A DNA stretch of 64,000 bases, taken from contig CM059432.1 of NCBI GenBank assembly GCA_030390025.1, forward strand, positions 88,290,001 to 88,354,000. Direction: 5' to 3'. The DNA is from Squalus acanthias (taxonomy: Eukaryota). The notes under the pieces were generated by a model that saw nothing but the letters and a program-made list of their open reading frames with translations, had not been told where the DNA came from and searched no databases. This document shows positions 13,779-40,254 of this stretch, piece by piece (position 1 is the stretch's first letter; each line of letters opens with the position of its first letter). The translations under genes were made by a program, and so were the position numbers.

Positions 13779-15200
13779 GGGCCGTATTGCAGGGCTCCAT
13801 CAGATTTATCTAGATTAAAACTAGAGTTAAAAATGCCTATGTTCTACTCTATTGAAACTCTTATAATCCCATGAGCCGCATATTTGTTCAAAAAATGGCG
13901 GCCGCCTTGCTTCCAGCGCGGGACACGGTGACCGCCATTTTGGAGAGGTCAATAGTGCTGCCATTGCAAATGTGCAGATTGTGACATCAATTGGCATGCA
14001 ACGTGTGATTTGGTGCATGACTGCGATTTTTTATGTCAGTGCACGCCATAACACCCTCTCCTAACCACGCACGGAAGAACGTGCGTGCAGCAGTACTGCA
14101 GAGACGCTGTCAGCGCTTCTTAAAGGGACACACACATCTTTCAGGTAAGATTTGATTTCAGCTTTTGGACTTCTTGTTATATTTTATTGAAGTAGTGGCT
14201 TGTGCAATACATTAAAAAAGTTACTAAAGTGTGCAGGGAGTGCTGCTCGACGCTTTCAAGGCTTTGGATGTTAAAGGAAGGCCTCTGAGAAGACAGAAAA
14301 TGCTGCAAATACTCAACAGGTCAGGCAGCATCTGTGGAGAGAGAAACAGAGTTAACGTTTCAGGTTGATGACCTTTCAGATGCTGCCTGACCTGCTGAGT
14401 ATTTCCAGAGTTTTCCGTTTTTATTTCAGATTTCCAGCATCTGCAGCATTTTGCCTCTGAGAAGACCACTTGCTCACAGTCCTGGGTGTACATGGAGATG
14501 AAGCAGAAGCAGTAAAGGGGACAAGCTGCTCGCAGAGGGAAGATGAAGAAGCAAAAGAGGAAGAAGGAAAAGAGGAGGAAGCAGAAGAGAATGAAGCAGA
14601 AGAGGAAGAAGCAGAAGAGGAGGAAGTGGAAGGAAGGATGCAACCAAGACAGCCCCTTTCTGGCCGGGATATCTGGGATGGAATCATCCACCTGCGGTCC
14701 CAGTGACCACAACTCCAATTCCCCTTTCAACATGTGTCCTACACCTTACCTTCTCTCTGTTACTGACTATCACAGCGTCCTCTTGGCCACAATACTGAAA
14801 TAAAAGCCACCACAAAGCAAACTTTCCAATCTAATTTTATCCATATATGCATCCAATATGAAATCAACTAATCACCCTTGCGCATTCCCTTAGTGACTGT
14901 CTTGTGTGTGCTTTTTCCTATCCGACTGATGTCACAAAGTGCTACCCCAGTGGCTGCAGCATGGCTGGTGGAAGGCTGCTGACTTTCAGTGGGGGACACT
15001 GCAGATCCCTTGCCGGTTGACCTTGAGGAGCTGGTGGCTGGGAGTGTCAAATCGAGTGACGGGGTTTCTTCTTCACTCTCCTCTCCCTCTTCTTGGTCAA
15101 CCACTGGCTGGGCAGGCTGGATTTCTTGAGTGTGTGAAATGAGGAAGGCACAAGGGCAGGGTTGTGGTGATGGGAGGGCAGGAAAGCAAGAGCTGCATCA
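13779..15200. mobile_element. Non-autonomous Harbinger derivative, family A, copy 2
   Basis: Colinear with 2654-3900 over >1 kb; includes a GAA-rich acidic tract at 14540-14640. Confidence 0.75.
14295..14452. mobile_element. Penelope-type fold-back element with 14-bp TSD
   Basis: Inverted arms (AAATACTCAACAGGTCAGGCAGCATCTG / CAGATGCTGCCTGACCTGCTGAGTATTT). TSD GCCTCTGAGAAGAC at 14281-14294 and 14453-14466. Hammerhead-like remnant on the minus strand at 14351-14379. Confidence 0.8.
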
Positions 15201-15335
15201 CCTCTTTAGTGATATGGTGAAATAGTGGAACTCCTATCTAAATAAAGTGCATATAATGATATTTACCAAAAATACAATTACTGACCCTCCCAAGATCTGT
15301 GACAAAATTGGCAACACAATACATTAGAAGTTGTT

Positions 15336-15817
15336 GGCCTGAAAATCTGCAGCCCATCCAGCACATGTTATGGTGGGATTGCATCGGAAGGGCCACAAAT
15401 GAGATATACGGGTCCTGGTCTTACTTTGAGGACTTGTAGGGGTGCAGCCTCCACCTGCTCCAAAAAGGGCCAGCATGATAAAAGGGGACAGGGCCAGGGG
15501 TGGGAACCTGTACCTGGCCTCACAGTCAGTGGGCACATTTATGGTGGTATTGTAGCGGGCTGCTGGGGGTGAGGATGCCTGGCACTGCTCTAGGCAGCCA
15601 CTCTTCCTCCCCACAATGCAGCCCTATGGAGCAAGGCGGGAGGCCTAGATGTGTGCCTGGTGGTGTGGGTGTTCGTCATTGACATGGAAATTAAGAGACC
15701 TCTCTGGACCCTGTTCATTTTGGCAGAGTTTCTAGCTGATATATCCAATCACATATGCTGGGACCGCCCCACCCCTCCCCCACCACTCCCCACACTCCCC
15801 CTGCAGATTTTCAGTCA
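15336..15817. mobile_element. MITE
   Basis: Perfect 14-bp inverted repeat CTGAAAATCTGCAG (15339-15352, 15801-15814). Confidence 0.7.
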
Positions 15818-15871
15818 CTCGCTGTTTATCTTTCACTGTTTATTGGACAAATCTTAAAAGAGAATTATAAT

Positions 15872-16400
15872 GGGCCAGAATTTGCTGGGACCTTGGTGAA
15901 CAGTGAGACCAACAGCGTATCTCCTTGACCAGCCAGATTTAAGGATTGAGAAACAAACAGAGGAAGGATTGAGAAGGAAGATGATTGCGAGTGTGTGAAT
16001 TCAATGTCAAATCAGGTTCAGAAAGAGAAATAAAGAGAGGGAAAGAAAGATTGGATTAAAAGAGAGATTAAAAAAAAGGAGACACAAAGGAAAAGTAAGA
16101 AAAAAAATGTAATATTTAAAATTTGACATTTTTAAAATCTCCGACAATTCATGACCTGAGGAATGAGACTCAACACTTTTAATTGTTCACCTTCTAAGCC
16201 AGCGAGGTTGATTGGCAGTCATTAACAATTATCACGTTGTTAAAAGGGTGCTTATGCTATGAATTACTGGACTTAACTTTCTGTGGCAAGTTCAATGGGC
16301 AATTAATGTGCAAATCCAGCAACTTCATGAAACTCACGGGAGATGCCGTTTTTGCAAAGCTGATTTGCAATTTGTGGGGTGTGTCATTCACATGGCGTTA
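15872..16400. mobile_element. Decayed Harbinger-type MITE
   Basis: Starts GGGCCAGAATTT, like 42330. Right end not resolved. Confidence 0.45.
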
Positions 16401-16513
16401 CTTTTTCAACAAATTATTTTCTCCATCTTTTTCATACAAATCTTTGAAATGCTGACTTAAAATTTATAAAGCGCCTTATTACATTTCTCAGAAACGTCTC
16501 AAAATGCTTCACA

Positions 16514-16996
16514 TACATTCCCTGCACTTTCCCTGCACATTCCCTCTACATTCCCAGTACATTCCCTGTACATTCCCTGCACATTCCCAGTACATTCCCT
16601 GTGCATTCCCCGCACATTCCCAGTACATTCCCTGCACATTCCCTGTACATTCCCAGTACATTCCCTGTACATTCCCTGCACATTCCCAGTACATTCCCTG
16701 TACATTCCCCGCACATTCCCAGTACATTCCCCGCACATTCCCAGTACATTCCTTGCACATTCCCAGTACATTCCCTGTACATTCCTGCACATTCCCAGTA
16801 CATTCCCTCTACATTCACCGTACATTTCCCGTACATTCCTTGTACATTCACTGCACATTCCCAGCACATTCCCTGTACATTCCCTGCACATTCCCAGTAC
16901 ATTCCCTGTACATTCACCGTACATTTCCCGTACATTCCTTGTACATTCACTGCACATTTCCTTTACATTCCTTTTATATTCACCGTACATTCCCTG
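16514..16996. repeat. 11-bp minisatellite (ACATTCCC-TGT/AGT/TGC)
   Basis: About 44 tandem variant units read directly; explains five overlapping spurious ORFs. Confidence 0.97.
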
Positions 16997-17447
16997 TGGT
17001 TAGAAGGAATATCTGAAAAAAGTGCTCCTTTTTAAATGTTTTTTACTCACTCGATGTTTGTAGTTATCCAATCACCTTTATCTAGTTTTAGAATGTATGT
17101 GAAGAGTCTAAAGCATTACTCTTTCTTCCTGTGGTAGGATGCCCCATCTGGTGGCCTGGCTAAGAATTGACAAATTCTTCACACTTAACAGAATTGTAAA
17201 GGCGACTGGCTGCTTGATCTGGGATTAATGCCCCAATTACACTGCACTTTGGGCACTGATACAGCAGAATCTTACAGATTATTAACTCAAATTAAAAAAA
17301 GCTACTATGCACTTTCTGCTGTTCCAGAATACAAAAAAAAGCACCAAAAGCTACAAGCCAACTACCATCACCAGGTTGGTTTTAAATGCGAGGGAACTGA
17401 TATTCACAGAGTTGACTGCAGTAAATGTGAGGTAGAATGAACTTTTC

Positions 17448-20126
17448 GGCCAGAATTTTGCCGGTGCTCAGAGGGCAGGTTTGGAGGTGGGTCTGCTGTC
17501 AAAATAGCCAATTTAATGCTATTTTGAGGCTTCCTTCCAATTTTACGTGCTCCCCCAGAGGTTACCCGCTGCTCGGGGAACATGCCAGCTCAACCTGGCG
17601 TGAGTTGAGTCTGCTCTGATGTTTCTGAAAAGCTGACAGCTGCAGAAGTGGTGTAAAGGATGCCATGTTGCAGATGGTCAGTTTTAGAGTGCAGAAACAT
17701 TTGGTTACTTCATTTGTAATACTTAGAGATTTCTTTAGCTTGCAAGGGTTTAGAGGCAACTGTATGTCCAGTGCCACCTCATTGGAACAAACTCTCTCAC
17801 CATTGACAGATCGCTTCTGTCATCTCTACTTCAGCTGCCATCTATTGCAGCAACATCGGTACCCTTGAAAAAATCAGACCTTGGTCCTCTGAATCCTTCC
17901 ACGATCAGCCCCAACACCAACATCACCAGGCACACTAACATCACCAACAACATCACCAACAACATCACCAACCTTCTCTGCCATCACCTGATGCTGCACT
18001 GGACACAGGGCATCATCCCCTGACAACATTGCTGCCCGGGAGGCCAGCGATGGCATCACCATGGCCAGACTTACTTCACTTGACGCTGTAAACCCTGGCT
18101 GCCACATGATGCGCCAGGTTGACACTATCCCACACCAGCACCGTGAAGCATCCCTTTAATATCCAAGCCATTCCATGCACACTCATCACTATAGCAGGGG
18201 TGGGGTGGGGGGCGGAAGTTATTTCTCAACATTCACTGGAACTCAGTAAGACACTTCTCAAGGTGCGCTCAGATCCAACGCTCTTCTCGATCTTCCTTGC
18301 GGCAATGCTCCATTTCACCCTCAGTAAGCTCCCCGCTGGAGTGGAGCTAATTTACAGAACAAACAGGAAACTGTTCAACCTCCGTCGCTTCCAGTCCAGA
18401 TCCAAGGTCGTCCCTTCCTCTGTCGTCGAATTACAGTATGCAGACGATGCTTGCGTCTGCGCACACTCGGAGGTCGAACTCCAAATCATCGTTAACACCT
18501 TCACCGAAGCGTACGAGAGCATGGGCCTTACACTAAACATCCTCTACCAACCTGCCCCCGCCACACTGTACTGCCCCCCGATTATCAAAATCCATGACAA
18601 GGCCTTGGACAACGTGGACCACTTTCCATACCTTGGGAGCCAACTGTCAACAAGGGCAGACGTCGATGACGAAGTCCAACACCACCTTCAGTGTGCCAGT
18701 GCAGCCTTCGGTCACCTGAGGAAGAAAGTGTTTGAAGACCAGGACCTCAAACCCGGCACCAAGCTCATGGTCTACAGAGCAGTAGTAATACCCGCCCTCC
18801 TGTATGCCTCAGAGACATGGACCATGTACAGCAGGCACCTCAAAGCACTGGAGAGGTAGGATAGGCGCACCAACGTCAGTGTTCTCGCTCAGGCCAACAT
18901 CCCCAGCATCGAAGCTTTGACCACGCTCGCTCAGCTCCGATGGACGGGTCACATCGTCCGCATGCCCGATACGAGACTCCCAAAACAAGCGCTCTACTCG
19001 GAGCTCCGACACGGCAAGAGAGCTTCAAGGACACCCTCAAAGCCTTCTTGAAAAAGTGCAACATCCCCACCGACACCTGGGAATCCTTGGCCCAAGACCG
19101 TACAAAGTGGAGGAGAAGCATCCGGGAATGCGCCGAATACCTCGAGTCTCTTCGCCGGGAGCAAGCGGAAGCCAAGCGCAAACAGCGGAAGGAGCGCACG
19201 TCAACCTAAGCACCCCACCCACCCTCCCCTTCAACCACCATCTGCCGCACCTGTGACAGAGACTGTAGGTCCCGCATTGGACTCGTCAGTCACCTGAGAA
19301 CTCATTTTTAATGTGGAAGCAAGTCATCTTCAGTTCCGAGGGACTGCCTAAGAAGAGAAGAAGAGAAACTTTACATGGACATTGGCTAAACCTTTCAAGT
19401 GCCTACCCTTGTGTGTTGTTAGTTGGTATGCTTGCAGTAGGATGAGGGTGAGTGTGAGGGGTGGCTAGTGAGATGGGGAAGTGATAATGTAGACAGAGAG
19501 GGTTGGGTGGAGGTGCAAGGTAAGTTGGTGTGAGTAAAGATGTAGGGTAGGGAAGGCAGAGTGATGGGGACGTGTTGAGTGGCACAGCAGGGTGAGTTTG
19601 AGTGCGGCTTTGAAGTAACGTTTCGTGATCCACTGAGATCATTGAAAGGTTGGCGCCACTGCAGCCAGGACCCCTGACGACATCCCTGCTTTTGCGCTCC
19701 TGTGCAATGTGCAACCAGGCTGCATTGCTTTCCCGGGGAGGTCTCTTCCACCCTTGGAAGGGAAGAGAACCTCCCCGCTTGCTGTGACCCCTTCCATAAA
19801 CATATAGAGGGAGTCATTGGAGAGCCTGGGTGCAAGCGTCCACCTTTGTGCAGTGATTGTTTACAGCACCTCAATGCTGTCAAGCACTGACAGAACAACT
19901 GTCAAACTCAATGTGGCCATGGTCCCTTTATGGAAACCGGCTGATGACGCGTCATCAAATGACATCATCAGACCCTGTTAATTGGCCGGGAAGCCTGCAG
20001 GGTGGGCTTAATAAGGCCAATCAAGGGAAAATCCCTTTGACAGAACGGCTGCAGCCAGGATCGTGACTGGAACCCGGAAACCAGCTTTCCCGCCACCATC
20101 CCAACACCACTGATAAAATCACGGCC
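17448..20126. mobile_element. Non-autonomous Harbinger derivative, family B, copy 1 (with RTE insertion)
   Basis: Ends GGCCAGAATTTT / AAAATCACGGCC; colinear with 45125-46834; antisense Myb exon-1 remnant (WLQWRQPFNDLS, ~19630-19680). Confidence 0.8.
18275..19363 (+). mobile_element. RTE-clade (BovB-like) LINE, 5'-truncated
   Basis: PTLFSIFLAAML, ELQYADD, FPYLGS, YRAVVIPALLYASETW, LRWTGHIVRMPD, KDTLKA, C-terminal zinc-knuckle-like remnant, (AAG)-type tail. Confidence 0.92.
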
Positions 20127-20467: not shown

Positions 20468-20611
20468 GGGAGTAATTTTGATTTTGGGTGATAGTGTAAA
20501 ACGGCCGATACCGAATCTGCCGCCCATTATACTGAGGCCATTGATTGAAGCCACGTGCGACTGATTTGATATCGTCCATTTACACTATCACCCAAAGTCA
20601 AAATTACCCCC
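20468..20611. mobile_element. 144-bp palindromic MITE
   Basis: ~40-bp imperfect TIRs GGGAGTAATTTTGATTTTGGGTGATAGTGTAAA / TTTACACTATCACCCAAAGTCAAAATTACCCCC. Confidence 0.85.
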
Positions 20612-21545: not shown

Positions 21546-22178
21546 AAATCTCGACAGCTTCAGTGAAATCATTTTAAGATTTTTTTTAAAGTATGCGCAT
21601 AAATAGTGACTGCTATTCCACCACAGAAGCATCACAGCCAAGCCTGATTCTGTCATCACCTGATGTTAAATCATAAGATCGCACGATAGATTCAAATGAA
21701 GGGCGGTCATTCTTAGTTCATCCAACCAGGAAGACCTAACAGTCTGACATCCAACCATCTCTAAACTGATTCTAGGGGTTTTGCTCTAATATTGCATCCA
21801 GAAATCCATTCTATGTGTTGATTACTCTTTCAATGGAGAAGAAGCTCCTGACATCCATCATAAATTTGCTTTTTACTGGTTTGAATTGTGTCCCCTTATC
21901 CTGCTATTAATGTTTAGTTGCAGAGCACTCCCTTTCCCAATGACACAGAATATACCTTTACTTGACCAATATAAAGGTAGCTTGTTGTGAGCCCAGGGGT
22001 CAAACAGAGAACCCTGTGACTGTATTTCTGTTTACTGGTTAGATCACATGCCTTCACATGGTCTTCCTCAACTCTGGAACACAGTAGAGTATACACTTTA
22101 CTAGACCATAGCATTGGCTAAAAACTGCCAAAAGATTTATCAAACAATGATGGATAAGTGAACAGAATTAATGACACA

Positions 22179-22249
22179 AATAAAAACAGAAAATGCTGGA
22201 AATACTCAGAAGGACAGGCAACATCTGTGGACAGAGAAACAGAGTTAAC
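22179..22249. mobile_element. Penelope-type fold-back, left arm (right arm at 31271-31382)
   Basis: AAAACAGAAAATGCTGGAAATACTCAG...GAGAAACAGAGTTAAC. Degenerate 15-bp TSD AGAATTAATGACACA (22164-22178) / AGATGCAATGACACA (31383-31397). Confidence 0.8.
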
Positions 22250-22660
22250 GGGCTGGATTTTAATTCGCAGACGCGCTGGGAGTGGGGGGCGGGGAACGTC
22301 GGTCAGTGGTTTTTAACTCAGCCACCTCATTATCATTTTACTTTTGAGTTTCCCGTCCAATTAGCGACAACAGGCGTGATGACGACCCACATGACGTGAT
22401 CTGAATGGCAGTATTTAAAGGGACACTCCAAGCATGCAAGTGGAAGCAGTTGGGGTTGCCATGGAGAGACAAAGCAATTTTGCAATGGAGTCGAGACGGG
22501 TAAAGGCTGCGTCCATCTTCACCGACGCCTCCCTGGATGTGCTGCTGGGGGCTCTAAGGACCCGGAGGGAGATACTGTTCCCGAGTGACGGGAGGAAGAA
22601 GCCTGCAGCTGAGACACAGAAGGCGTAGTTGGAGGTTGCCCAGGAAGTCAGCAGCAGGAG

Positions 22661-23862
22661 AGGGGTCTATAACAAGGGGGCATAGATTCAAGGTAAAGGG
22701 CGGGAGGTTTAGAAGGGATTTGAGAAAAAACTTTTTCACCCAGAGGGTGGTTGGAGTCTGGAACTCACTGCCTGAATGGGTTGTGGAGGCAGGAACCCTC
22801 ACAACATTCAAGAAGCATTTGGATGAGCACTTGAAATGCCATAGCATACAAGGCTAAGGACCAAATGCTGGAATATGGGATTAGATTAGACAGGGCTTGA
22901 TGGCCGGCGCAGACACAATGGGCCGAAGGGCCTCTATCCGTGCTGTATAACTCTATGGGGTAAAAATTAGGTCGCGCCCCATTTGGGGCGCAAATATCGT
23001 CTGGACGCAAATATTAGCGCCTGGCGCTAATTATCGGCACTGACTGGAAACTTCACTTTTACCGCCCCGGGAGGTGAGTGGAGCGCTAAATCAGGCGCTG
23101 CACACCTGTCTTAAGGCGCAAAGGCCAAGGAGTGAGGCGCTAACTCAGAGCGCTGGCGAAGCTCATGTAATGTCAGTCAGCAATGGAACACACACACAAT
23201 GGCACGGGCCAGTTCTTAAAGGGGATGGTTAATCTTGCTTTCCATCCACATCCTGCTCATTGCAGCCTTGAATCTCAGCCTGGAGAGACTTGCACATCAA
23301 ATGTGCTGGAAAGAACAATGGAGAGTACCAGGCAAAGAGCTCAGAGTGCAGCTCCCACAGTCTCTGCTAAATCGATACAAGGAATGGCAAATCAAAATGA
23401 ACCTGCAAAGTGCTGCTCAGTACCCAAAACTCCTTCACACAACGTTGAATCTCTCCAGAAGTCTCTCCCTCTCTCTCTCAGAATGCGTAGTTCAAAAATG
23501 CCACCAACAATAAAAGACAGGAAGAGGCCCCCTTTAAATAGCGCCCCCCCCCAGCTCCACAGCGATTGATAGCGTTCCAGTCTTCCGGTCGTTGGATGCG
23601 CCAGGCGGTACGGCAGGGGGCGCCACTCAATTTCCGCTCCGGGGCGCCACAAGGGTGTTGCACCATGGAATGACGTCATAATCTGCGCGCGCAGGTGGTC
23701 GCAGCGGTAAGTTTTAGCGCCGCCGCACAATCTCTAGTTAAGTTCCCGAGCGGCGCAAACATCGCTGCGCCCGGGCGTTAGCGGCTTTGCGCCCCATTAG
23801 CGCCCTCTTAAGGCGCTAACGGGAGGCGCAACCAACTGAATTTTTACCCCTATGACTCTATG
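22661..23862 (+). mobile_element. CR1 3' fragment inserted in Myb exon 1
   Basis: TRGHRFKV...FTQRVVGVWNSLP and 3' tail; 5-bp TSD AGGAG (22656-22660, 23863-23867); removal restores the Myb frame. Confidence 0.9.
22957..23850. mobile_element. Harbinger-type MITE, family C, copy 2
   Basis: Perfect 12-bp TIR GGGGTAAAAATT / AATTTTTACCCC; TSD TAT (22954-22956, 23851-23853) in the CR1 tail. Confidence 0.93.
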
Positions 23863-23971
23863 AGGAGCGTGGTGCCACGCTCCTGGATCCAATGCAGGAA
23901 GCGCTTCAATGACCTAAGCAGCACAGGAAAGGTGAGAGCAATAGCACATTGCCCTACATCCTGATGTGCGT

Positions 23972-26277
23972 ACATAAGAACATAAGAAATAGGAGCAGGA
24001 GTAGGCCATTTTGGCCCCTCGAGCCTGCTCTGCCATTCAGTGAGATCATGGCTAATCTTCTACCTCATCTCCACTTTCCTGCACTATCCCCATATCCCTT
24101 GATTCCCTTAATATTCAAAAATCTATTGATCTTTGTCCTGAATATACTCAATGCCTGAGCCTCCACAGCCCTCTGGGGTAGAGAATTCCAAAGATTCACA
24201 ACCCTTTGAGTGAAGAAATTTCTTCTCATCTCAGTCCTAAATGGCCGACCCCTTATTCTGAGACTGGGACCCCTGGTTCTAGACTCCCCAGCCAGGGGAA
24301 ACATCCTCCCTGCATCTACGCTGTCAAGCCCTGTAAGAATTTTGTATGTTTCAATGAGATCACCTCTCATTCTTCTAAACGCTAGAGAATATAGGCCCAG
24401 TCTACTCAATATCTCCTCATAGGACAATCCCCCCATCCCAGGAATCAGTCTGGTGAACCTTTGTTGCACTCCCTCGATGGCAAGTATATTCTTCCTTAGG
24501 TAAGGAGACCAAAACTGTACACAATACTCCAGGTGTGGTCTCACCAGGACCCTATATAATTGCAGTGAGACGTCTTTACTCTTATACTCAAATCCTCTTG
24601 TAATAAAGGCCAACATACCATTTGATTTCCTAATTGCTTGCTGTATCCGCATGTTAACTTTCAGTGATTCGTGTACAAGGACAGTAAGAAATCGTGAATT
24701 GGAAGAAATAACTTGAGACAAAAAAGTCTCTTCAGACTGGTGTTACAATAACTGATAGACGCTTAGAATTTGCTTATGTTCTTGGTTCCCTGCGGATGTT
24801 ATAACATTCTGCACCGTGGCGGTAACCTTGTTTCCAGACTAGCTGCCTGCTGTTTGTGTGCTAGAAAGTTTGTTGACTGTATCTTTGGTTTGGCCAACCA
24901 AGGCCCAATGCCTATGTTTCTTCCATTATTGCTAATAACCATATTATAATGCTAAGTTAGGATTTTGACTTTGTTTAACAAAGCTGCTTTAAAATGTGTA
25001 AGTTAATTAAGTATAAGGATACAGAATAGAAGATATCTTTGGGAATTTAATGATACATTCCATAGTACAATAGTCTGATGAACAGCTTGAACATAAATAA
25101 CTGATAACAAGCAGCTATGAACATCTGAAGGCCGAGAATGGCATGTCTGACTCCAAACTGGGGAGGATAAGCACGGGAGAGAGAGTAGGAAATCGTTTGA
25201 AAGTATAAACAGGAAAGACATGTGAAGGGGAGGGTTTTCAACCAAAAGTTGAGACAAAGAACTCGACATACCATTGGGCACCTTGGTTTAGAAAGAGCCC
25301 TTACGGGTTAGATAGTCCTGTCCATAATCTACCCTAGGCCCATCCCTAAAAAGAGAATAAAAGAGATATCTAAAGAGCCTTTAACACAGATGATGAAGAG
25401 AAGAGCTGTTCGTGTACGCCAGCCGTCCGTCCGATCGGGACCGATACCAGCTGCTTGTCACGGTCGTATATCTATTATGTTTATCTTGATTGCGTGTTGT
25501 ACTTAACTTAAACTGCCGCTCCTTAATAAAGCAATCTATGACTCCTAAGACCCTTTGGGTAATCTGTGTGTGATCTGTGATCCAAATCTTACAGGACACC
25601 CAGGTCCCTCTGAACACCAACATTTCACAAACTCTCACCATTTAAAAAATACTCTGCTTTTATATTTTTCCTACCAAAGTGGATAACTTCACATTTCTCC
25701 ATATTATGTTCCATTTGCCATGTTCTTGCCCATTCACATAGCCTGTCTATATCCCCTTGAAGCCTCTTTACATCCTCCTCACAACTTACATTCCCACCCA
25801 GCTTTGTATCATCAGCAAACTTGGATATATTACATTTAGTCCACTCATCCAAATCATTGATATAGATTGTGGATAGCTGAGGCCCAAGCACTGATCCTTG
25901 CGGTACCCCACTAGTTACAGCCTGCCAACCCGAAAATGACCCGTTTATTCCTACTCTTTGTTTTCTGTCTGTTAACCAATCCTCAATACATGCTAATATA
26001 TTGCCCCCAATCCCATGAGCCCTAATTTTGTTTCATAACCTCTTGTGTGGCATCTTATTGAATGCCTTCTGAAAATCCAAATACACCACATCCACTGGTT
26101 CCCCCTTGTCTATTCTGCTAGTTACATTCTCAAAAAACTCTAACAGATTTATCAAACACGATTTCCTTTGCATGTTGACTCTGCCCAACCCTATTATTAT
26201 TTTCTAAGTGACCTGTTACCATGTCCTTAATAATAGATTCTAGATTTTCCCTACTTCTGATGTCTGGCTAACTGGTC
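23972..26277 (-). mobile_element. CR1 LINE 3' half, in Myb intron 1
   Basis: Minus ORFs SKFADDTKLGG, LYRVLVRPHLEYCVQFWSP, LWNSLP; tail ACATAAGAACATAAGA; split by an LTR. Confidence 0.93.
24683..25593 (+). mobile_element. Solo LTR, 911 bp (Gypsy- or ERV-type)
   Basis: Termini (A for T)GTAAGA...TCTTACA; 4-bp TSD GGAC (24679-24682, 25594-25597); TATAAA ~25204; AATAAA ~25525; removal restores the CR1. Confidence 0.85.
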
Positions 26278-27456
26278 ACCCCAACTCCCTCACTCTGCCT
26301 TCTCAAGCCTACTCCAGCACATCACTCCTCACACCAACTTACCTTACAGGTGCACCCATCCCTCTATGTGTATGCACTTACTCACATTCCCATTTATCCA
26401 TCCACCACTGACACTCACCCTCATCCTTATGCAATGTCATGCCTTTCCCTCACAGTCACCCTCAACAAATGCTCTCCATCCAGCAGGTAAACACATCCCA
26501 TTACTCACACTCATAGGTCTCTCATTTCCCTCCTTGCAGGAGAAGAGAGCACAGAACACCAGGGAGAGGCGGAGAACTGGAGACGGCCCTCTCGCCACCT
26601 CTCAATTAACATCTGCAGAGTAGGTGACACTGGAGGTCAGCAGAGTCTCGGCGTGCCTGGCCATTGGAGTTCGGTCCTGCCAGCTACCTGGTGACAGAAT
26701 TAAATATCAGGCAGCCACATGGCATACAACACTCAGTCATGTTGACTGTATGTCAACAGTGACTGAAACATGATCATGTGTATAATGATAACTTCCAGCA
26801 TTCTTACCTTCACGGTACTTATTCATGTGTTTTATCTCCCACAGGGCCTTCACACGCCCATCAGTAGGTGGTCGAGGTTGCCCACGACGATGACAACTCC
26901 TCAGAGGAGCTCATACCCGCTGAGGGTGCACCGTCACAGGACTCATGCAGACCATGCACCAGTTCAGATAATCACACTTCGGTGGGACTAGTTAGAGAGA
27001 TAGTTGGGTTTTCACATGGTTACTTGCACTTCAGAAGTGACCAAGAGCAGATGGTGGAGTCAGGGAGAGCAGTGGAGAACCTGCGTCAGAGGGCGCAGGA
27101 CTCTCCAAGCTCTGCTCAGCTGGATGCAGATGCTGTACCCCGGAGGCCGTTGATGAACACGATACTTCTTGTGCAGCAGCAGAGAATGTGCGATGTACTG
27201 ACAGGCATTCCAAGCATGCTGTGCACGATTGCAGTGAGATTGGAAGAGTCCATCTCAAGCATGAGTGACATGATGTCGCAGGCCTTTGCGATGATGTCTT
27301 CTTCCATGCATGAAGCATCAAACGCGGCAATCCAACGAGTGTATGCAAGCCTTCAACAATGGCTTGCACACTATGAATCCGACCTTAAATAGGATGAATG
27401 ATAATCTAGCCTTGGTCTTTCCTCGCCCCACTGATCTGTAGCAAAGTGGTCTCCAG

Positions 27457-28930
27457 TGTAGGTGGTGGTTTATGTCAGCTTCACCTCTGACTTCTGAGCG
27501 GTTCGAATCGCTGCCACTCCCTTGGTTCTAGACCTTGGACTTATTTGGGGGTTGTGACAAAAATTGCAGCAGACAACTTGATGCAAGAACTTTGATCTTT
27601 ATTCAAGAGAGTAAAACACAACACAAACACTCTTAACACTCTAAAAGTGGGGAACACTTCGGTACAAGCGAGGGAAATAACATTAGAAGAATACTTCACC
27701 CCTCCCAATCCCACTCTACTAGCTAGATTGGACTCCAGAGGACCAGGGATGATACTCACCAGAATCCTTGACAGTTAGGTTAGTTCGCGGTTTTGGGGTT
27801 CGCTCTATATGTTGGTTGGTGTCTGCCATACCCCATACGCGGTAGAGGACTTCAACTGCGTATCTGGTCAGTCTTCGCGAGTCCGCTGATGCGGTAGGGT
27901 GCGTATTGGATCTATCAGGTGAGTACCCACTTTTCTTTGGTTTAGAAGTAGGGTTTAGAGTTTTTAAGGGAAAATCTTACCCAGGGGTAAGTCAGGAGTA
28001 GATTGTAGAGTGGAAACTTTGCGGATCTTCGGGTTTTCTTCGAGTTGGTTTTCTTTGGTCGCGGTGGCCCAGTATTGGTACTTGATGTTTGGTTGGTTGT
28101 TTTCGTGAGGGCCTTGTTGCCGCGAGGTGTCCGATGGTCACTGAGGCGGTCGTTCTGGTTTCTTCACGTGTCGGCCTACTTTGTTGGATGGTCTGGCCTT
28201 CGAGCTGTCGACCACCTGCTGGACACGGAACGCTGAACGGTGGTGTTTTAGAATTGTGTTGCGGAGAATGCCTCCGTAGATGTCTTCTTGTTCTTCCTTC
28301 CTCTTCTTCTTTTTCAGGTTGAGAACGGGCCTGCAATTATACCCATTGAAGCTTCCTTATCTGCGCGCCAAATCAGATCCCAGTCTTTGTTAGATTTTGG
28401 CGGACTCGTTAACGGTAATTCGTTTGTTAAGGTGTGAAGTGGTTTCGGGATGGCCCCATCCTGTCGATTTGCTACTTAATCGTAGTTGACTGTCCTCATG
28501 TTTTGGGTTTCTTGACTGGGCCTAGGATTTCTATAGAGTAGGCCGAAGTAATCTGTTTTATGCATGTCTTTAATGGGCTCTGTAAATTTGGGTGGAGACT
28601 GTTTTTCCTCAGGTTTATTGTTAGGATGTTAATGTCTGATAGGGGCCGATTTAAACTCCCAGCGAGGTCATGCGGTTCCCCAGACAGTTTCCATTAGCTC
28701 CAATATCCAAACTGTCTTTGCAGAGGTTGAACCCACCTCCCTTCACAGCCTTTTCTCCCTTACAAGCCCAGACATGTTTTAAAAATACCAAATCTTGGTT
28801 TTTGCTCAAAATGTCCTTCGGTTAGGCACAATGCACTTCACCACCCTTAAATAGCTAGAAGAGTCCAAAGTCTTTTTCCTTAGGGTTTTTCTTAGAGTTT
28901 GGGGGATCTGTGAATTTTGAGAATCTTACA
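27457..28930 (-). mobile_element. Solo LTR, 1474 bp
   Basis: Termini TGTAGG...CTTACA; 4-bp TSD CCAG (27453-27456, 28931-28934); minus-strand AATAAA (TTTATT at 27598). Orientation is inferred from that signal. Confidence 0.8.
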
Positions 28931-29589
28931 CCAGCACATTGGCAGCAAGGAAGTGCGGCTAGGCCATGAGAGGGATGATGGTGAAATGGGACATGGAAGT
29001 GGGGACTTGGCTAAAAGCGCTTCCACTTCTCACCTGTTGCACCCACCCCACCCAGTCAGAGCCCCACATGCTGCCTCATGTCCCGATGGCCGAGTCTGCT
29101 CCTGCACAGATGCAGGTGGAGCAGTCTTTGGCGGTGCCCTCACGGGCTCCAAAACCCAGAGGACATCAGGCAACAACATCTCAACAGTCAGAGCAGGGAT
29201 CTGAGCAGCCTCCCTCTACCTCTGCTGAAGCCACAGGGGTTGCACTGTGTCGAAGTGCTAGGAAAAGGAAGAGTGAAGATTTGTAGTTGCACAAGAGTAT
29301 GAACATGGGTGTGTTGCACATTGTTAGATTAAGTTTCTATTGTCTATTTGAAGCACATAAATATTATTCTTTTGCACCACTTTCCCGTCTTGCCCATTCT
29401 TGTTTGTTGGCTGGCACGTGGCCTTTTCAGTTATGTGATGATGAATGGGAAGACATGAATTTATGGTGACTAATAGGATGCTGTGAAAGGGAGGCTTCGT
29501 TGTTTGCAGGACTGCTTTGCGTTAGTGGCATGGGGGTGGGGGGGAAAAGTGTCTTTTGTGTGTGGTTTTTAGATGGGTGCACTGGTGGA

Positions 29590-30763
29590 ACTTAGGTGAA
29601 CCTCGCAATAATGGTGCATTGCCCGCATCACCTTCCACTTCCTCATCTTCCTCCTCATCCTCGGATTCTGAAGAGGCTCTGTGCTCTGCGTCTTGTTCCT
29701 CCTGAAGGTCCAAACCTCATTGCTGCGCAATGTTGTGAAGAGCGCAGCACACCACGACCATTCAGGAGACCCTGGTTGGTGCGCACTGAAGAGCACCTCC
29801 AGATCTGTCCAGGCACCTGTAGCGCATCTTCAGCATGTCGATGGGTTGTTCAATGACACATCTGGTAGTCATATGGCATTCATTGTAGCACTCCTGAGCC
29901 TCGTTCCTCGGGTTTCTGAGAGGTGTCATCAGATACGTTTTAAGTGGGTATCCCTTGTCTCCGAGTAGCCAGCCGGTAACTCTGCTTCCAGATGCGAAGT
30001 GATCAGGGAGGGTGGACTGCCGCAGACGAAAGCATCATGCAGCTGCTCGGAAATCTTGCACACACCTGCATAAAGATCCTTTTTGTGGTTGCACACCTGC
30101 TGCACATCGATGGAGTGGAAGCCCTTGTGGTTGATGAACACTCCTGGGTGATCTGTGGGTCCCCTAATTACCACATGTGTGCAGTCAATGATGCCCTGCA
30201 CCTGTGGGAAGCCAGCAAGTGCCGCAAACCTGAGCGCCCGCTCATTCTGACTGGCATAATTGCAGGAAAAGTTGACATAATTGGTGGACCTGGCAAACAA
30301 GCCATCAGCCACCTGTCTTATGCATTTATGTACCGCTGACTGCGAGAACCTGCAAATGTCTCTGGCAGAGCCCTCAAAGTTTCTAGAGGCAAAAATGTTG
30401 AGGGTGGTGGTGACTTTGACAGCCACTGTGGCCACCAGGTCCAGCTGGCAGCAGGTCTGGTTCCAGCAGGCTGCAAATGTCTGCCACCATCTGATGTGAC
30501 ACCCTGAGCATCCTGAGACACTGGTGTTCAGACATGTCGAGGAAGCTCATCCTCTGCCTGTAGACCCTGTGTGCCGGGTATGGCCTTCTGCGATCTACAC
30601 TTCTCTGCTACTTCTCTCTCTCGTGTGGAGCTAGAGGTCTGTGAGCAGCCACCTATTGCTGGTCCTGCTGCTGCTGGTGGTGCTACTGGTGCTGCTGCTG
30701 CTGTTGCTGGTCATCTTTGTCCTCATCTGGGGTCCACTATAAGGCAGCATAAGTGGCACCCAT
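29590..30763 (-). pseudogene. Harbinger DDE transposase (DDE_Tnp_4, HARBI1-like) pseudogene
   Basis: [59 protein letters not shown] and CCALHN in shifting frames; several frameshifts and stops. Confidence 0.93.
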
Positions 30764-31270
30764 GCTGATCTGATAGATCTGAGCTCCAAAGTGCAGATCA
30801 GACCTCCAAACCTCCAAAGTGTATATGACACCTCCAAAGTGTTGAAAAAACCTCCAAAATGTGTAGGATAACCTCTCAGTACAAGTACTATGAACAAACC
30901 CTTTCCCACAAGCAGGTAATAAAGCAGCTGTGAGTATTGAGTACTTATTGGCATATTTCCCTGTCATGGCTTTAGTCCCCTCAATTGCCACTGTGTTCTC
31001 ACCTTGCTTTCACTGGCGAGTTGCAGGAAGCCCAGGAAACCCGTGCACCCACAGTTAAAATAGAAATCCCATGTCAGTATTGCTCTAATTGAGCGTTTAA
31101 CATACCTTAAGTGGCAACGCGCCTCTTCCGAGTGGCTTGCTCGCAAGCAGCCTAATGCAATGCAGTGAAATATGGAAGTCGGCAAGTTGGAGCTGGCTTC
31201 CCGAAACGCTGTCAATTTCACAAGTTTTAGCCCCCCACCCGCTCCCAAACCCACGCAGATTAAAATTCAG

Positions 31271-31382
31271 TTTGTTATCTCTGTTTCTCTCTCCACAGAT
31301 GCTACCTGACTTACTGAGTATTTCCAACATTTTCTGTTTTTATTTCAGATTTCCAGCATCTGCAGTATTTTGCTTTTGTTTT
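31271..31382. mobile_element. Penelope-type fold-back, right arm
   Basis: CTCTGTTTCTCTCTCCACAGATGCT...GAGTATTTCC...TTTCAGATTTCCAGCATCTGCAGTATTTTGC; inverse of 22179-22249. Confidence 0.8.
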
Positions 31383-31439
31383 AGATGCAATGACACACTA
31401 GATTTGCAGTAGATACAGGCTTAGTTCACAATATAAAAA

Positions 31440-34228: not shown

Positions 34229-35864
34229 CGGGGGTGGTTTTTAACTTACGACCACCTGTTTTCCGCTAGAAAGATGGGTGCTAGGCTTACTAATTTTGGG
34301 TGGGGATCTCGCTCACCCGATATCTGCTGGAAGTGCACCCAACGCCATTTTGAATTTGGCACATTTTAGTTGTCCATGACGCCCACCCGAAACTGGCATA
34401 CGCCTAATAAGTATATGTAAATGAAGGTCCTGTGCCAGTTTAAGGACCCTACCTCCATTTTCAACTTCCTCATCACTGCACTAGAGTTAGCTACTCTAAA
34501 ACCCACCCATAAATCCTGGGTAGAAACAATCAGGAGGGATGGTGTACCAGCGTTATTTAAAGGATCTTCAGTTGCAGTTAGGTAAGTAGGTAGTTAGTCA
34601 TTTTAAATTGCTAGTGGGCTTTTGTGCCAATGTTTGGCTATGTTGACTACAAAATTTGGGGCAAGTTATTCTTTGGAGCTGGGAGAGAATTTCTGCCCGG
34701 GGGTTTTGGCATAAACTTCCTCTGCCAACATGGGTGTGCCGCTCAGTCTGCACACTGGGGTGTACATGCACAGGAAGGAACGTGGAGAATCATGAAGAAC
34801 ATAAGGAAACAGAGAATGCCAAGGAAGAGAAAGGCTCCTCAATCCTGCCAGCTGTAAGAGCTCTTTGGCAGAAAGTCATGGGGAACACTTCAGCTGAGTC
34901 ATCCTGATTCCCCTGCACCAACAGTCCTTCCCAACATCAGTGCCGGTCCTTCCACACTTCTTGGGACTGCACTCAACCCAAGCACCAACATGGGTACCTC
35001 TATAAAATCAAAGTACCTCCTTCAGCTTCCACTTGCACACTCAGCACCTGCTCCTACGCTCACAATTACTGCATTCTCTTCCCCATACCTGCTAATTCTT
35101 CACCATACCTGCTAATTCTTTCCCTCACCACACATACTATGCTAAACTGTCACACACATGTTTACAACCCTTCAACAGGCTAAGCAATAAGCCACTCCCA
35201 CTTTTCTTGTAGGACAAGCTGCTGCATAACAGAAGGTAACCGACTTGCACCAGAGGAGGGCCACCATCTATCCAAGTCATCATGCCCTGTAAAACAGGTG
35301 CAACAAGGGACAATTTTAGGGATCAACATCACGCGCTCCTAAGATGCCTGAAAGACATCTGACCTGATATTGGGTCAGACAATATTTCAGGCATCCCTAG
35401 TGGCCACCTAAAACAGTCGTTAAGTCCCTTACATATGTAACTGAGGAGCCGAACGCATGTTTTAGGCCTCCTTGAAGAAAAAGGATTGCGATGAGTGGAG
35501 CAGGTGCCGGGCCTACTCCACTCAGGTTTCTTCAGCAGCTGCCAACACAAAAAAATGTTTTAATTAAAAAATTTCAAAAAACTTTGCTGTGGAGCCAAGA
35601 GGAGCAGGCATGCTCCTCCCATTCCACAATACTCAGCCCCTCCCCTGTTGCCGCTCCACCCATCTAGGATTTACCTAAGGACCGTGGGCAGCAAGGCATG
35701 CGGCCTGACATTCATCCACTTCAAATTGGCAATCTTCCTGTGGAAACGCAACAGGTGCTGGCAGCTCGCCCAATTAATGCAAATCAGGCCCGAGGCCCAC
35801 TTTCAGGTTGACTGCGTGCCATTGATTATGCATCCCAAAACGGGCCATAACCAATTTATACCCC
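34229..35864. mobile_element. Decayed Harbinger derivative
   Basis: G-rich and C-rich ends, TTTAAAGG...AGGTAAGT leader, and a Myb exon-2-like remnant TTGTAG|GACAAGCTGCTGCATAACAGAAGG...GGAGGGCCA at ~35210. Confidence 0.55.
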
Positions 35865-37927
35865 TCTATATTGTAGCAGATCACCTGTCATTACAATCAG
35901 ACAGACTGCAGCCTCTGCTGACTCTGCTGCAATGCTGGTGTGATATGAGTATAAGTATCCAATGCATATGCAAAGTGTGAGTCTTGGAAAATGACACGAG
36001 TTGTATTTAGATACTATTCATTAGTGTTAATTAGTTCAACAAGGCTAAAGCATGGTTATCATCACTATAGGACCAACAAACTACCTCCACACCAGTAATT
36101 TAGCAGCACGCGATACACGAGGTTAAGTGTACACTGCTCCACACTCCCGAAATTCCTGATGCCTAATCAATGTGGAGCACACATGTTCATTGCAATACCA
36201 ACAATAATTTACAGACTCTACACATTAAAGGTACAAAGGGAGATTCTCTCCTGGGTGGGGCATTTATTTCAAACTTGACAATAAATAAGTGACCAGCATA
36301 AAACTTCCATTGTAAATGGGACTGGAGAGTGAATTCCAGCGCTCCTGGGACTGGACAGTTCAGGTCATAGGGAGAATTGCTGGAAAGTCTGCGTTGTGCT
36401 ATTTTATAACAGCAAGGATGCTATACCTTGTAAAACACACTTGTATTATATATATATTATATTGTATTATATATTATTACTCTAGCAATCAACTGACACA
36501 GACACAATGGGCTGAATGCCCTCCTTCTATGCTATAAACTTTTATATTATTATAACATTCAGTTGCTTTGTGTCTTCCTTTCTTCCTGTAAATATGTATC
36601 TCCTCTCTAATTCTTTCTGTCACTTTCTGTGTCTTTCTTTTTGTCTTCTACCCCTTGTTTCTCTCAAAATGCTTGCATTGTAAGAAATGTCCAGAAAATA
36701 ATTTGTGGCTAGTGATCGCATACCATCTGAACATTGAGAGAGCAACGACCTCTTCTGCTGATAAAAGGAAGAACACTGCCTGTAAGTGCACGAATGGCAA
36801 TGCAAGTGTAATCAATGGTGCCTTGTACTTGTGGAATGCTGTACTACTGGTAAAATTGGTCCACAGTTGCTGTTGCATGCTATTGTTGAATTTTGATGTA
36901 CGTAGATGTGTTGTGTAGCTATCATTTCAGTGTTGTAGCAGTGAATTCCATACTAACCGATCCGAGTGATATCTTCTGTTGGACAAATGCAGTGATGTTG
37001 AAAATTAGTGCAATAGTTATTTTCACTTCCCCTGGGAGGGCAGTCTGGTAGTTGCCACATAACTGCAGATCTGGTTCAGAGTTTACATGGGTTTAAGTTT
37101 GTATCTCTGTTGAGGCACAATGTCTTAACTTACTGCTCCTCGCTAAAGCCCTGGGAAGTGGTACATTGCCAGTAGTCACACTGCACCAGGTAGTACTGAG
37201 TCCTGAAAATCTGCCTCCTATACTCGCAAAACCTCCCATTCTGTGGTTCTTCTGCTACTGTTGCTCCTGCTCCTACAATATACCTGGCATTGGCAGGCTT
37301 GATGACATAACCATGCTACAGAGTTCATTTTAATTAGTATCTCCTCCTCTGCTCATCATTTTTGCCTGCCAGCTGTCTCCAGTTGTTTAAAACCAGCTTT
37401 AAATGGGAGAAATTAATGCAATGTGGCATTGAAGTAAATTGTAAGTAAATTTGGATGTTGAACGTTATTTGCGATTTGCCAATCATAAAATGCATTAATG
37501 TTGAGTCTGTGCATTAATGGACATTAGAAATATTTACTCCCAGGAGAAAGTTTAGGAGCATGAGGAAAAATGAACAACCATTCAATTAACGGAACTCATA
37601 AATTTAGCATCCCTTAATGCACAATTCGCATGTGTTCCCTCTAAATTTTTTTCCGTGCGCGGTCCCTTTAGGGGCCGCGCATGCGCGGTATCTCTTCCAG
37701 TGGCATCAGCTGGTGAGCGGCCTGCGCAGGAACATTGGAGTTAGCTCTAGTGCAGAATAAATTAAATCTCCATATAGTCTGATTTATAGGATCTACAAAT
37801 TGAACTGTCCCTCCATTTATTTGGGTTCTGTTAGGGCCTTTCCCATCACTTCTATCTAAAATGTGGGTAAATTTTTTTTACATTCAGCACTACACTCTTT
37901 TACATCTTAACTTCTGCAGAGTTTGGT

Positions 37928-38521
37928 CTACTCATCTGCTGCTGAAACCCTCATCCATGCCTTTTTTACCTCTAGACTTGATTATTGAACACACTCCTGG
38001 CTGGCCTCCCACATTCTACCCTGCGTAAACTTGAGGTCATCAAAAACTCGGCAGCCTGTGTCCTAACTCGCACCAAGTCCCGTTCGCCCATCACCCCAGT
38101 GCTCGCTGACCTACATTGGCTCCCAGTTAAGCAACGCCTCGATTTTAAAATTCTCATCCTGGTTTTCAAGTCCCTCCATGGCCTTCCCCCTCCCTAGCTC
38201 TGTAATCTCCTCCAGTCCCACAAGCCCCCTGAGATATCTTCGCTCCTCTAATTCTGCCCTCTTGAGCATCCCCTATTTTAATCGCTCAACCATTGGTGGA
38301 CGTGCCTTCAGCTGCCTTGGCCCGAAGCTCTGGAATTCCCTCCCTAAACCTCTCCACCTCTCTTTCCTCCTTTAAGACGCTCCTTAAAACCTATCTCTTT
38401 GAACAAGCTTTTGGTCATCTGCCCTAATTTCTTCTTATATGGCTCGGTGTCAAATTTTGTTTTATGACACTTCTACATTAAAGGCGCTATATAAATAAAA
38501 CTTCTTGTGGTTGTTGTTGTA
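37928..38521 (+). mobile_element. L2 LINE 3' fragment
   Basis: ETLIHAF.TSRLDY, HSTLRKLEVIKNSAA, ITPVLADLHWLPV, GRAFS...LWNSLP; tail AAAGGCGCTATATAAAT..(TTG)n. Confidence 0.92.
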
Positions 38522-40070
38522 CTTATTTTTGTCTGTTTCTCTCCCTCTACTACTCCTAATCTAGTGCTTGTTTAATGTTTTAGAGGACAATTTCCCTCAT
38601 TCCCTTCATCTGAGTGGCCATATTTGTAGGTTTAGGTCATTACCCTCGGCCCAATGTACCCCAGACACAGGCGACCCAACCCCTTGGCAGGGCCTCTTCC
38701 TTGGAAATTGCAGCTGAAATCCAAGCATTGCTGCAGGTCTGAGAGGAATGTCCAACATCAAAATTCTGCCAAATGGGTTTTATATAGACTGACTGTATTT
38801 TCTACTAGTAATGTGATAACATTTAACAATGAGATGCAGGATAGAAATTGAATCAAGGGATTCTGATGAGGTTATGCACCACAACGGCAAATCTTAAGTC
38901 GTTTCTATTGTTAACACAATCCCAAGGTTCAACTTTTACCACAGTCTTTTTTACTTGTAATAATATTAAATATACTATTGCCTTCTATAAGAAGGGTCTC
39001 GAGCGTAGCTGTTAACTTGGATTCAATTTATTTGCTTGATTAGCTGTTGTAGGGAAGGCGAAAACTGTTCAAATTATATAGAGCAGTCTGACATCATGGG
39101 ATATTCATGGCACAAATAATATACACAGTAGAAAAGGTAATAAAAATAAGAGTTATACTGGACCTAACATATTTAGCATTGAGTTACTGGTTTCCTAGTA
39201 ATACAATATGTACAGGAGGCATGTTGCGATATAACAGAAGAAAATATATAGCTTGTAGTGTATATTATAAACAGAACTGCTTTAGACTGACATCAACATA
39301 ATTAAAACATTGAGAAGATCTCATCTGAAACTGTGCAACTTGATGGAGTTTTAAATCATATTCCTTTTGGGCAATTTTAATAGTTAATGCATGGGAATTT
39401 GTTAATTGACTTATACAGCATAACATACTGATTGAGTCTTCATGTAAGTGATTATTAATGAGGCTCAGGCACAGAGACTAGAAATAAGTTTACCATGGAT
39501 TTGTTGATCCACATTTAGATTAGGAAGTAATTTAACACACTAATGGCAAAAGTCACCTCCGAAATGAGTTGTGCTATAAATGGTGCACCATAATGTTAAA
39601 TGAAGAATATTAGATATGATTCTTTTGTGGAGCAGAAAAAGCATGTGATTGTTTTTACACCATGAGCATGGCCTCATAAACCATGAATAACATTCTTTAA
39701 ATGAAATGCCATGATGGAATACTTGGAGTCTAACCATTTGCCATATGCTTGACCCGTAACACTGATGGGTAGCACTGGAGTAAAACAGAAAAACTGTATG
39801 CAGAAAAAATTGGAAATGCACAGCAGGTCTGTCAGCTTCTGAAAAGAAAGAAAAACACAGGTCAGCATTTCAGGTGGAGATGTTTTGTCAGAGCCCTGGT
39901 ATGTACCACTGCATTCACCAAAATAATGAACCAACAATTCTTTTTCAATAATTTGAATGCAGGCATTCTGACATCAAAAGGACTTTCATGGCACAAGCAA
40001 CACACATGGGAGCTAGCCAACCATAGAATATCGCATAACCCAACAAGAACTGCAACATCATGGATTATGT

Positions 40071-40237
40071 AAAATAAAAACAGAAAGGGCTGATAATATT
40101 CAGCAGGTCAGGCAGCTCATTGACCTGAAACGTTAACTCTGTTTCTCTCTCCACAGATGCTGCCTGACCTGCTGAGTATTTCCAGCATTTTCTGTTTTTA
40201 TTTCCGATTTCCAGCATCCGCAGTATTTTGCTTTTGT
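40071..40237. mobile_element. Penelope-type fold-back element with 14-bp TSD
   Basis: Inverted arms; perfect TSD ATCATGGATTATGT (40057-40070, 40238-40251); TCATTGACCTGAAACGTTAAC at 40117-40137. Confidence 0.82.
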
Positions 40238-40254
40238 ATCATGGATTATGTGCT

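Follow-up and report, generated by a model that had tools for sequence, protein, structure and literature searches.

Head-to-head stubs ending within a hammerhead motif in a Squalus acanthias contig are very probably truncated end pieces of a Penelope-like retrotransposon

Three short fold-back insertions in a 64,000-nucleotide stretch of Squalus acanthias DNA (contig CM059432.1, hereafter the window) are very probably dead-on-arrival stubs, that is, extremely 5'-truncated, head-to-head insertions of an endonuclease-bearing Penelope-like element (PLE). Each holds one short unit, in which lies a minimal type I hammerhead motif, as two arms with their 3' ends facing outwards, one arm reaching about 34 nt further 3' than the other (the tail), and is flanked by target-site duplications (TSDs) of 14-15 bp. 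Only the last 100-130 nt of the end repeat (pseudo-LTR) would thus have been copied, twice and head to head. Because each insertion has a junction of its own, we regard them as one-off truncated insertions and not as a self-copying fold-back or retrozyme family. The stubs encode nothing and should not be expected to move by themselves. Their layout is one already known (Arkhipova 2013; Craig 2021; Frangieh 2024), of which they are most likely new examples.

A sequence-only reading of this DNA had counted four elements; we find three independent insertions, A (14295), B (22179/31271) and C (40072), whose parts are given in Table 1. The remaining one, at 3129, is insertion A again, duplicated within its host repeat: since the flanks of the two copies are homologous (2940-3269 against 14108-14444, 79%; 3279-3885 against 14599-15198, 86%), they represent a single insertion. 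The left TSD of the 3129 copy is identical to that of insertion A at 13 of 14 positions. Two deletions mark this copy, one of 10 nt at the junction and one of about 85 nt on its right side, which took the tail end and the right TSD. Within the window, no copy of the host repeat free of the insertion was found. Inverted arms with a right-hand tail were confirmed at 14295-14452 and 40072-40237, and in all three insertions the tail is on one arm only. The pairing of 22179 with 31271 as one insertion also stood, with its halves 9 kb apart and separated by an insert that carries a DDE_Tnp_4 domain (PF13359, 29765-30546, minus strand) and sits at the GTT/AAC triplet of the hammerhead.

Table 1. Parts of the three insertions and related features (positions in the window)
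Feature	Position	Strand	Basis and remarks
Decayed insertion-A duplicate in second host-repeat copy	3116..3269	.	Flank homology 79-86%, alignments; left TSD 3116-3129, inverted arm to 3203, direct arm 3203-3269; 10-nt and ~85-nt deletions
A, left TSD	14281..14294	+	14/14 against 14453-14466; last bases also fit element end
A, inverted tail-less arm	14295..14378	-	71/73 against 40123-40195; alignment
A, direct arm with tail (about 14427-14454)	14377..14454	+	72/78 against 40154-40231
A, right TSD	14453..14466	+	14/14 against left TSD
B, probable left TSD	22164..22178	+	12/15 against 31383-31397
B, inverted tail-less arm	22178..22250	-	69/73 against 40131-40203; reaches hammerhead helix III
Harbinger-type DNA transposon with nested LINE pieces	22250..31270	.	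Imperfect terminal inverted repeat; right end damaged
B, direct arm with tail (31346-31379)	31274..31379	+	99/106 against 40132-40237
B, probable right TSD	31383..31397	+	12/15 against left TSD
Older single-arm relative of the same end repeat	39801..39895	-	73% over 75 nt
C, left TSD	40057..40070	+	14/14 against 40238-40251
C, inverted tail-less arm (shorter arm)	40072..40116	-	40/45 against 40159-40203
C, direct arm with tail (about 40204-40237)	40117..40237	+	Starts within helix II; GAAA at 40127-40130
C, right TSD	40238..40251	+	14/14 against left TSD

The perfect direct repeats flanking insertions A (14281/14453) and C (40057/40238) and the 15-bp repeat with three mismatches flanking insertion B (22164/31383) were all verified. 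For insertion B, the binomial chance of such a match is about 4e-5, before allowing for the choice of boundary; as a control, 5000 random window pairs of similar spacing included 18 with a perfect repeat of at least 14 nt. We saw no empty site for insertion C: the related organisms B and D also carry it, and organism E has no coverage over 39956-40057.

By alignment, the junctions are different in all three insertions, and each time the end of the longer arm falls within the ribozyme. The inverted tail-less arm is the longer one in insertion A: it begins at U7-G8 of the hammerhead, takes in helix II (with one mismatch), GAAA and the CG palindrome, and finishes at the 3' end that lacks the tail; its upstream letters agree with the family consensus described below, and the direct arm overlaps it by 2 nt and the right TSD by a further 2 nt. 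The junction of insertion B lies at the stem III palindrome. Insertion C is joined without overlap, and its direct arm contains the predicted ribozyme cut site at 40134/40135. The spacer goes with the tail-less arm in insertion A and with the tailed arm in insertion C.

The hammerhead letters quoted at 14379-14351 (minus strand) and from 40117 are exact as written, and an intact CUGANGA is absent from every fold-back copy in the window. The 'CTGA' at 14379 does not have to be read as a damaged C3-A6 core. It arises most simply from the junction itself, the inverted arm giving U7-G8-A9 and the other arm the C, although the letters are equally compatible with an intact core that lost 3 nt. Under a strict CUGANGA-N6-40-GAAA pattern the window holds 5 matches, none of them inside the fold-back elements, and an Rfam scan of the window gave 11 matches at E values up to 5, with no hammerhead and none at gathering score; one stub showed a weak, sub-threshold match to a microRNA model. 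With no complete ribozyme in their letters, the window copies should not self-cleave.

The family as a whole was followed in contigs from four sequencing runs of four organisms, from which 24 of 1802 loose-end rows and 15 of 364 joints were listed. In all four runs the loose ends upstream of 40117 read CUGAYGA and then AAGG (441, 702, 815 and 458 contigs), with an agreement of 0.52-0.54 over 30 letters, so that the family consensus does carry the core directly upstream of stem II. Joined to the window letters, these ends complete a motif with a U-rich leader, helix I (AGUU/AACU) and the CUGAYGA core; a single unpaired A separates the core from helix II (AGGUC/GACCU, 3-nt loop), and GAAA, the CG palindrome and U17 follow. 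The published minimal PLE hammerhead is NNN CUGANGAH GNNNNN..NNNNNC GAAAN palindrome NUH NNN (PMC4209133), and the family motif matches this consensus except at the first helix II pair, which is A-U at 10.1-11.1 where the consensus has G-C. The A-U pair also occurs in three published PLE-type motifs (the Latimeria(2), D. willistoni and Marsupenaeus rows; PMC4209133). Metazoan PLE hammerheads therein share with the family the CUGANGAH core, the unpaired base before helix II, GAAA, the CG palindrome, U17, the 4-bp helix I and the U-rich leader, but the window copies are truncated within the motif. One supplement file of that work (Cervera and De la Pena 2014) holds no shark entry, and we found no paper on hammerhead ribozymes of elasmobranch Penelope elements in a search outside most subscription papers and Repbase.

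The repeat is very abundant, with 40,327-93,284 contigs per run; in run X5 its summed depth is 11.3 million, against 20.5 on unique flank, which should not be read as a copy number. The loose ends downstream fall into two clusters, at 40202-40204 (424-876 contigs per row) and at 40236-40239 (347-676), and the distance of about 34 nt between these 3' ends is in line with the 30-40-bp tail of PLEs (PMC8557442). Family joints fall at many different junctions with few contigs each, and include further opposite-strand joints among the 15 listed. Upstream, hundreds of contigs per run continue through the whole hammerhead motif. The proposal that inversion junctions fall in or beside the ribozyme holds for the longer arms of our three insertions but, given these longer contigs, may reflect the choice of short copies.

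For the Penelope-like reading, which stands as regards the core in the family and the arms ending in the ribozyme, a linked Penelope ORF was looked for without success. A Pfam scan of 138 of the 144 window ORFs of at least 85 aa (the other six lie in an 11-bp tandem array at 16.4-17.0 kb) gave no GIY-YIG match. The unit has an open frame of about 40 codons, which is not itself evidence of coding; protein searches with this 38-40-aa frame gave 1 and 15 hits, none with reverse transcriptase (RT) or GIY-YIG. Most were short predicted proteins in which the repeat is translated, including one fusion with a PIP5K fragment, and two were unrelated repetitive proteins. In 2 of the 15 hits (P0009, P0013) the match opens with LMKG, which is the intact-core reading. 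Since no link to an RT or GIY-YIG ORF was found, membership of the PLEs is argued from anatomy. A tRNA scan of the window was negative, so there is no tRNA-SINE head in it. Motif pattern scans gave no match in viral contigs, 28 in metagenomes, with unrelated flanks, and 4 in prokaryotic genomes, which were 21-35 nt long, lay on bacterial contigs of 55-68% GC and were taken as chance.

Among known systems, the stubs resemble Pen2a/Pen2 of Adineta vaga in their head-to-head inverted end repeats, the 30-40-bp tail at one end, the TSD and junctions at short overlaps or palindromes (PMC3846280; PMC8557442), but they keep 45-120 nt per arm with nothing between and no ORF found. In rotifer Penelopes an inverted and 5'-truncated pLTR occurs, a tail may be present and the TSDs measure 8-10 bp (PMC3846280), against 14-15 bp here. 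In PAc, the Poseidon element of Anolis carolinensis (PMC11167929), the tail lies between two RT start sites, so that, as in our family, two 3' end points define it; both target strands are cut and extended in vitro, hammerhead cleavage is unnecessary for insertion, and uncleaved RNA is reported to serve as template in vitro. The parts of that report consulted do not discuss inverted stubs, and ours, unlike PAc, are known from sequence alone.

How the arms came to be inverted is described for PLEs in general as still undefined (inverted ends and tails; PMC8557442), and a search outside most subscription papers and Repbase found no relevant paper on inverted or truncated twin priming in Penelope. 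We tentatively favour, at somewhat short of an even chance, a staggered-cut model. The element's protein would nick both target strands about 14 nt apart, and both 3' ends of the stagger would prime on uncleaved RNA, one at each of two internal start sites, giving the tailed arm from one and the tail-less arm from the other; both copies would stop early and then be joined with 0-2 nt of overlap. These priming steps are drawn from three insertions. Each of the three longer arms continues upstream beyond the predicted cut site, which would be expected of an uncleaved RNA template. A less likely course, with the same PLE origin, is self-priming, in which one first strand, after folding back at a short match, would serve as its own template for the inverted arm, as proposed for rotifer Penelopes on an antisense template (PMC3846280). 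The spacer on the tailed arm of insertion C has the shape it predicts, the junction of insertion B lies at a palindrome, and junction palindromes were so interpreted by Arkhipova (2013). However, the spacer of insertion A is with the tail-less arm, and fold-back of a tail-less strand cannot make a tail; insertion C has no overlap at its junction, and the model could be rescued by a later flip of the spacer between arms. The spacer accompanies the tailed arm in one insertion and the tail-less arm in another, a pattern that speaks for priming from both target nicks.

The sequence-only reading had proposed non-autonomous, retrozyme-like inserts. As a self-copying short element this does not agree with three different junctions, the many junctions of the family and the lack of any head-to-tail copy of the unit in the window. 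It could survive in another form, which we consider improbable: the source RNA would be a non-autonomous head-to-tail array of a unit of about 157 nt, each with a hammerhead, mobilized by a PLE protein in trans, and the stubs its truncated insertions. A head-to-tail joint in run X5, from 40241 back to 40117 (2 contigs) with CUGAUGA in the 32 intervening letters, would fit such an array, as would the missing ORF link and the report of vertebrate non-LTR retrozymes derived from PLE end repeats, including one chondrichthyan (bioRxiv 10.64898/2026.07.22.740005). These are likewise short, non-coding and equipped with a type I hammerhead, but they are arrayed head to tail and have two or more intact ribozymes, whereas the window stubs are head-to-head with none intact; the joint appears in one of four runs among those listed, and partial tandems are a normal PLE layout too (PMC8557442). 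Still more improbable, to the point of being nearly dismissible, is a MITE or fold-back DNA transposon family with the arms as its terminal inverted repeats. Strong hairpins, very high abundance and the absence of coding capacity would suit it, yet such a family should have symmetrical fixed termini, a fixed interior and fixed short TSDs, while here the ends are unequal with a tail on one side, arm lengths and junctions vary in every insertion, and hundreds of contigs run upstream through an intact hammerhead core. We know of no DNA-transposon superfamily with TSDs of 14-15 bp.

In themselves, the stubs are unremarkable by-products of a retroelement class already known. If the staggered-cut model is true, a single mechanism lies behind the inverted arm and the one-sided tail, and the stubs are a record of PLE integration, testable from genomic counts in so abundant a family: such minimal two-arm insertions allow counts of spacer orientation, TSD length, overlap at the junction and distance from the ribozyme cut site. 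They are also prone to misannotation as MITEs or microRNA hairpins. As RNA, 14295-14452 folds at z = -7.7 and 40072-40237 at z = -10.3, with 0 of 200 shuffles folding as well in either case. The older single-arm relative at 39801..39895 retains a core one letter off CUGACGA, with a decayed helix II and GAAA downstream of it.

We find that the fold-back elements are real and rightly read as Penelope-like and hammerhead-derived. A BLAST comparison of the arms against the window recovered eight of them, together with an older relative that has a single arm (matched at 39801-39875). Folding yields long hairpins for the segments 14290-14452 (z = -7.7) and 40071-40237 (z = -10.3), neither of them equalled in stability by any of 200 shuffles. 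The sequence-only reading had counted four elements, a number that comes down to three independent insertions, each a head-to-head stub with a tail-less left arm. The copy at 3129, which differs from that at 14295 by a 10-nt deletion and one of ~85 nt, belongs to the same insertion, since both flanks are homologous (79% and 86%). The two halves of insertion B are likewise one insertion, split by ~9 kb that has imperfect inverted repeats at its edges and contains a DDE_Tnp_4 remnant.

Insertions and features in the window (junctions in coordinates of the copy at 40117)
Feature	Position	Inverted arm at junction	Direct arm at junction	Flanking repeat
Insertion A	14295-14454	reaches U7-G8	begins 40154	14/14
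Insertion B	22178-22250 + 31274-31379	40131 (helix III)	40132 (helix III)	12/15
Insertion C	40072-40237	ends 40159	begins 40117	14/14
Older single-arm relative	39801-39895, minus			
Harbinger-type element	22250-31270			
PF13359 match	29765-30546, minus			
Short element with same terminal inverted repeat type	7396-8097			3-bp GTA

Two of the three target site duplications that had been claimed are perfect; the third, at insertion B, is probable, since its binomial chance (near 4e-5) takes no account of boundary choice. Among 5000 random window pairs, a perfect repeat of at least 14 nt occurred in 18 and one of at least 9 nt in 69. Insertion C is common to two of the sequenced organisms (B and D), where single contigs span from flank into element with 14 and 32 differences, and is therefore old; no empty site for it was seen among contigs of the four runs.

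As had been stated from the sequence, no stub copy in the window has a complete hammerhead core, and an Rfam search of the window gave no hammerhead match. The family, however, does have an intact CUGAYGA core. When contigs of four runs (four organisms) were aligned to window 39650-40650, those extending upstream of 40117 (441, 702, 815 and 458 per run) gave the consensus CCAGTT, CTGAYGA and AAGG in all four, with agreement of 0.52-0.54 over 30 letters, so that the CTGANGA expected upstream of stem II is present. Independent support comes from protein matches carrying the translated repeat, 2 of 15 of which begin LMKG, the reading of the intact core, and from the older relative at 39895, whose core is one letter from CUGACGA. 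This relative lies 180 nt left of insertion C and resembles a second subfamily, which shows up in loose ends before 40146 and differs in the loop of helix II.

With base pairs assigned by hand from window letters and contig consensus, the family motif consists of helix I (AGUU/AACU), CUGAYGA, one unpaired A, helix II (AGGUC/GACCU, 3-nt loop), GAAA, a CG palindrome and U17, and its predicted cut is at 40134/40135. Position 40121 is C in most of the read depth. The published consensus of minimal PLE hammerheads has a U-rich leader, CUGANGAH, a G..C helix II, GAAAN, a palindrome and NUH; several of its rows end C-G-U-U and three have an A-U first helix II pair, like the family described here (PMC4209133). 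The 'CTGA' at 14379, noted in the sequence-only reading, is most simply a junction product, in which the inverted arm runs to U7-G8 and shares 2 nt with the direct arm, although an intact core that lost 3 nt would explain it equally well.

Each copy is a one-off stub; together they do not make up a mobile family of short elements. With a master fold-back element, one dominant junction would be expected, but insertions A, B and C all differ and the family joints are scattered: among the joints listed (15 of 364), those between opposite strands are spread over several positions, each backed by 1-10 contigs. A retrozyme is defined as an array of head-to-tail units that holds two or more complete ribozymes (bioRxiv 10.64898/2026.07.22.740005). 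This definition does not fit the window copies, although the listed joints include one of head-to-tail type with an intact core, in run X5, and the retrozyme-like part of the sequence-only reading is not supported for them. Its placing of the junctions in or beside the ribozyme holds insofar as the end of the longer arm lies within the ribozyme in 3/3 insertions; clustering there is unproven, since short copies had been picked and the whole motif is read through by hundreds of contigs.

Several junctions are located at 40154-40155. Pyrimidine tracts followed by CAG, resembling splice acceptors, occur at 40139-40156 (with CAG at 40154-40156), near the tail start (40190-40207) and, in family sequence just upstream of 40117, right before helix I. 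The Penelope element of D. virilis has an intron whose end lies at helix I (PMC4209133).

Among the rows listed (24 of 1802), downstream loose ends cluster at 40202-40204 in all four runs and at 40236-40239 in three; past both points they share no sequence (agreement 0.37-0.40), and summed depth at 40205, a rough measure, is 0.34-0.52 of that at 40160-40193. The two clusters and the fall in depth indicate that the unit can end at either of two 3' positions ~34 nt apart. In 3/3 insertions the left arm ends at the first or a few bases short of it (40195-40203) and the right arm extends to the second or near it (40231-40237). Penelope-like elements (PLEs) typically have a tail of 30-40 bp on one end, along with an adjacent copy that is inverted and 5'-truncated (PMC8557442; PMC8969392). 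One rotifer Penelope combines an inverted pseudo-LTR with a 31-bp tail and a 9-bp TSD (PMC3846280), and in an anole element two internal RT start sites delimit the tail (PMC11167929). That the stubs behave as truncated PLE insertions is well supported. No RT or GIY-YIG ORF linked to the repeat was found among window ORFs or protein matches to its open frame, and scans of public sequence collections for the motif gave no match, or chance matches. One frame is open through the entire unit and tail (40124-40237); its translation is found inside many short predicted proteins, which are probably gene-prediction artefacts.

The longer arm crosses the predicted cut site in 3/3 insertions, and its template was therefore not the 3' cleavage product. 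We propose that a staggered target cut of about 14 nt would be followed by priming of both target 3' ends on uncleaved RNA, one per RT start site, and that both copies would halt after 45-125 nt and be joined with 0-2 nt overlap. For the anole element, both target strands are reported to be cut and extended, ribozyme cleavage being unnecessary (PMC11167929). Self-priming fold-back in place of priming from both 3' ends fits insertion C but seems the less likely route across the three insertions: in insertion A the spacer goes with the arm that has no tail, and copying by fold-back could not make the tail, unless a later flip of the spacer reconciled insertion A with it.

The Harbinger-type element that splits insertion B lies exactly at the GTT/AAC triplet beside the predicted hammerhead cut site. 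Its left end abuts AAC; its right end lacks the last inverted-repeat bases and the expected 3-bp duplication, and would fit a 7-nt loss. The short element at 7396-8097 has a clean duplication and is hosted by a LINE fragment.

Overall, the window is animal DNA dense in repeats; besides the DDE_Tnp_4 transposase remnant, it contains fragments of LINE-type RT and AP-endonuclease. It also holds tandem arrays at 16411-17030 and 50365-50564 (11-bp and 40-bp periods) and further local inverted repeats at 49164-50109 (243-bp pair, 79%) and 60903-61289 (74-bp pair, 97%). The top Rfam match in the window is a perfect-looking 130-nt hairpin at 20475-20604, unrelated to the stubs, which scores 42 bits against a microRNA model with a gathering score of 80.
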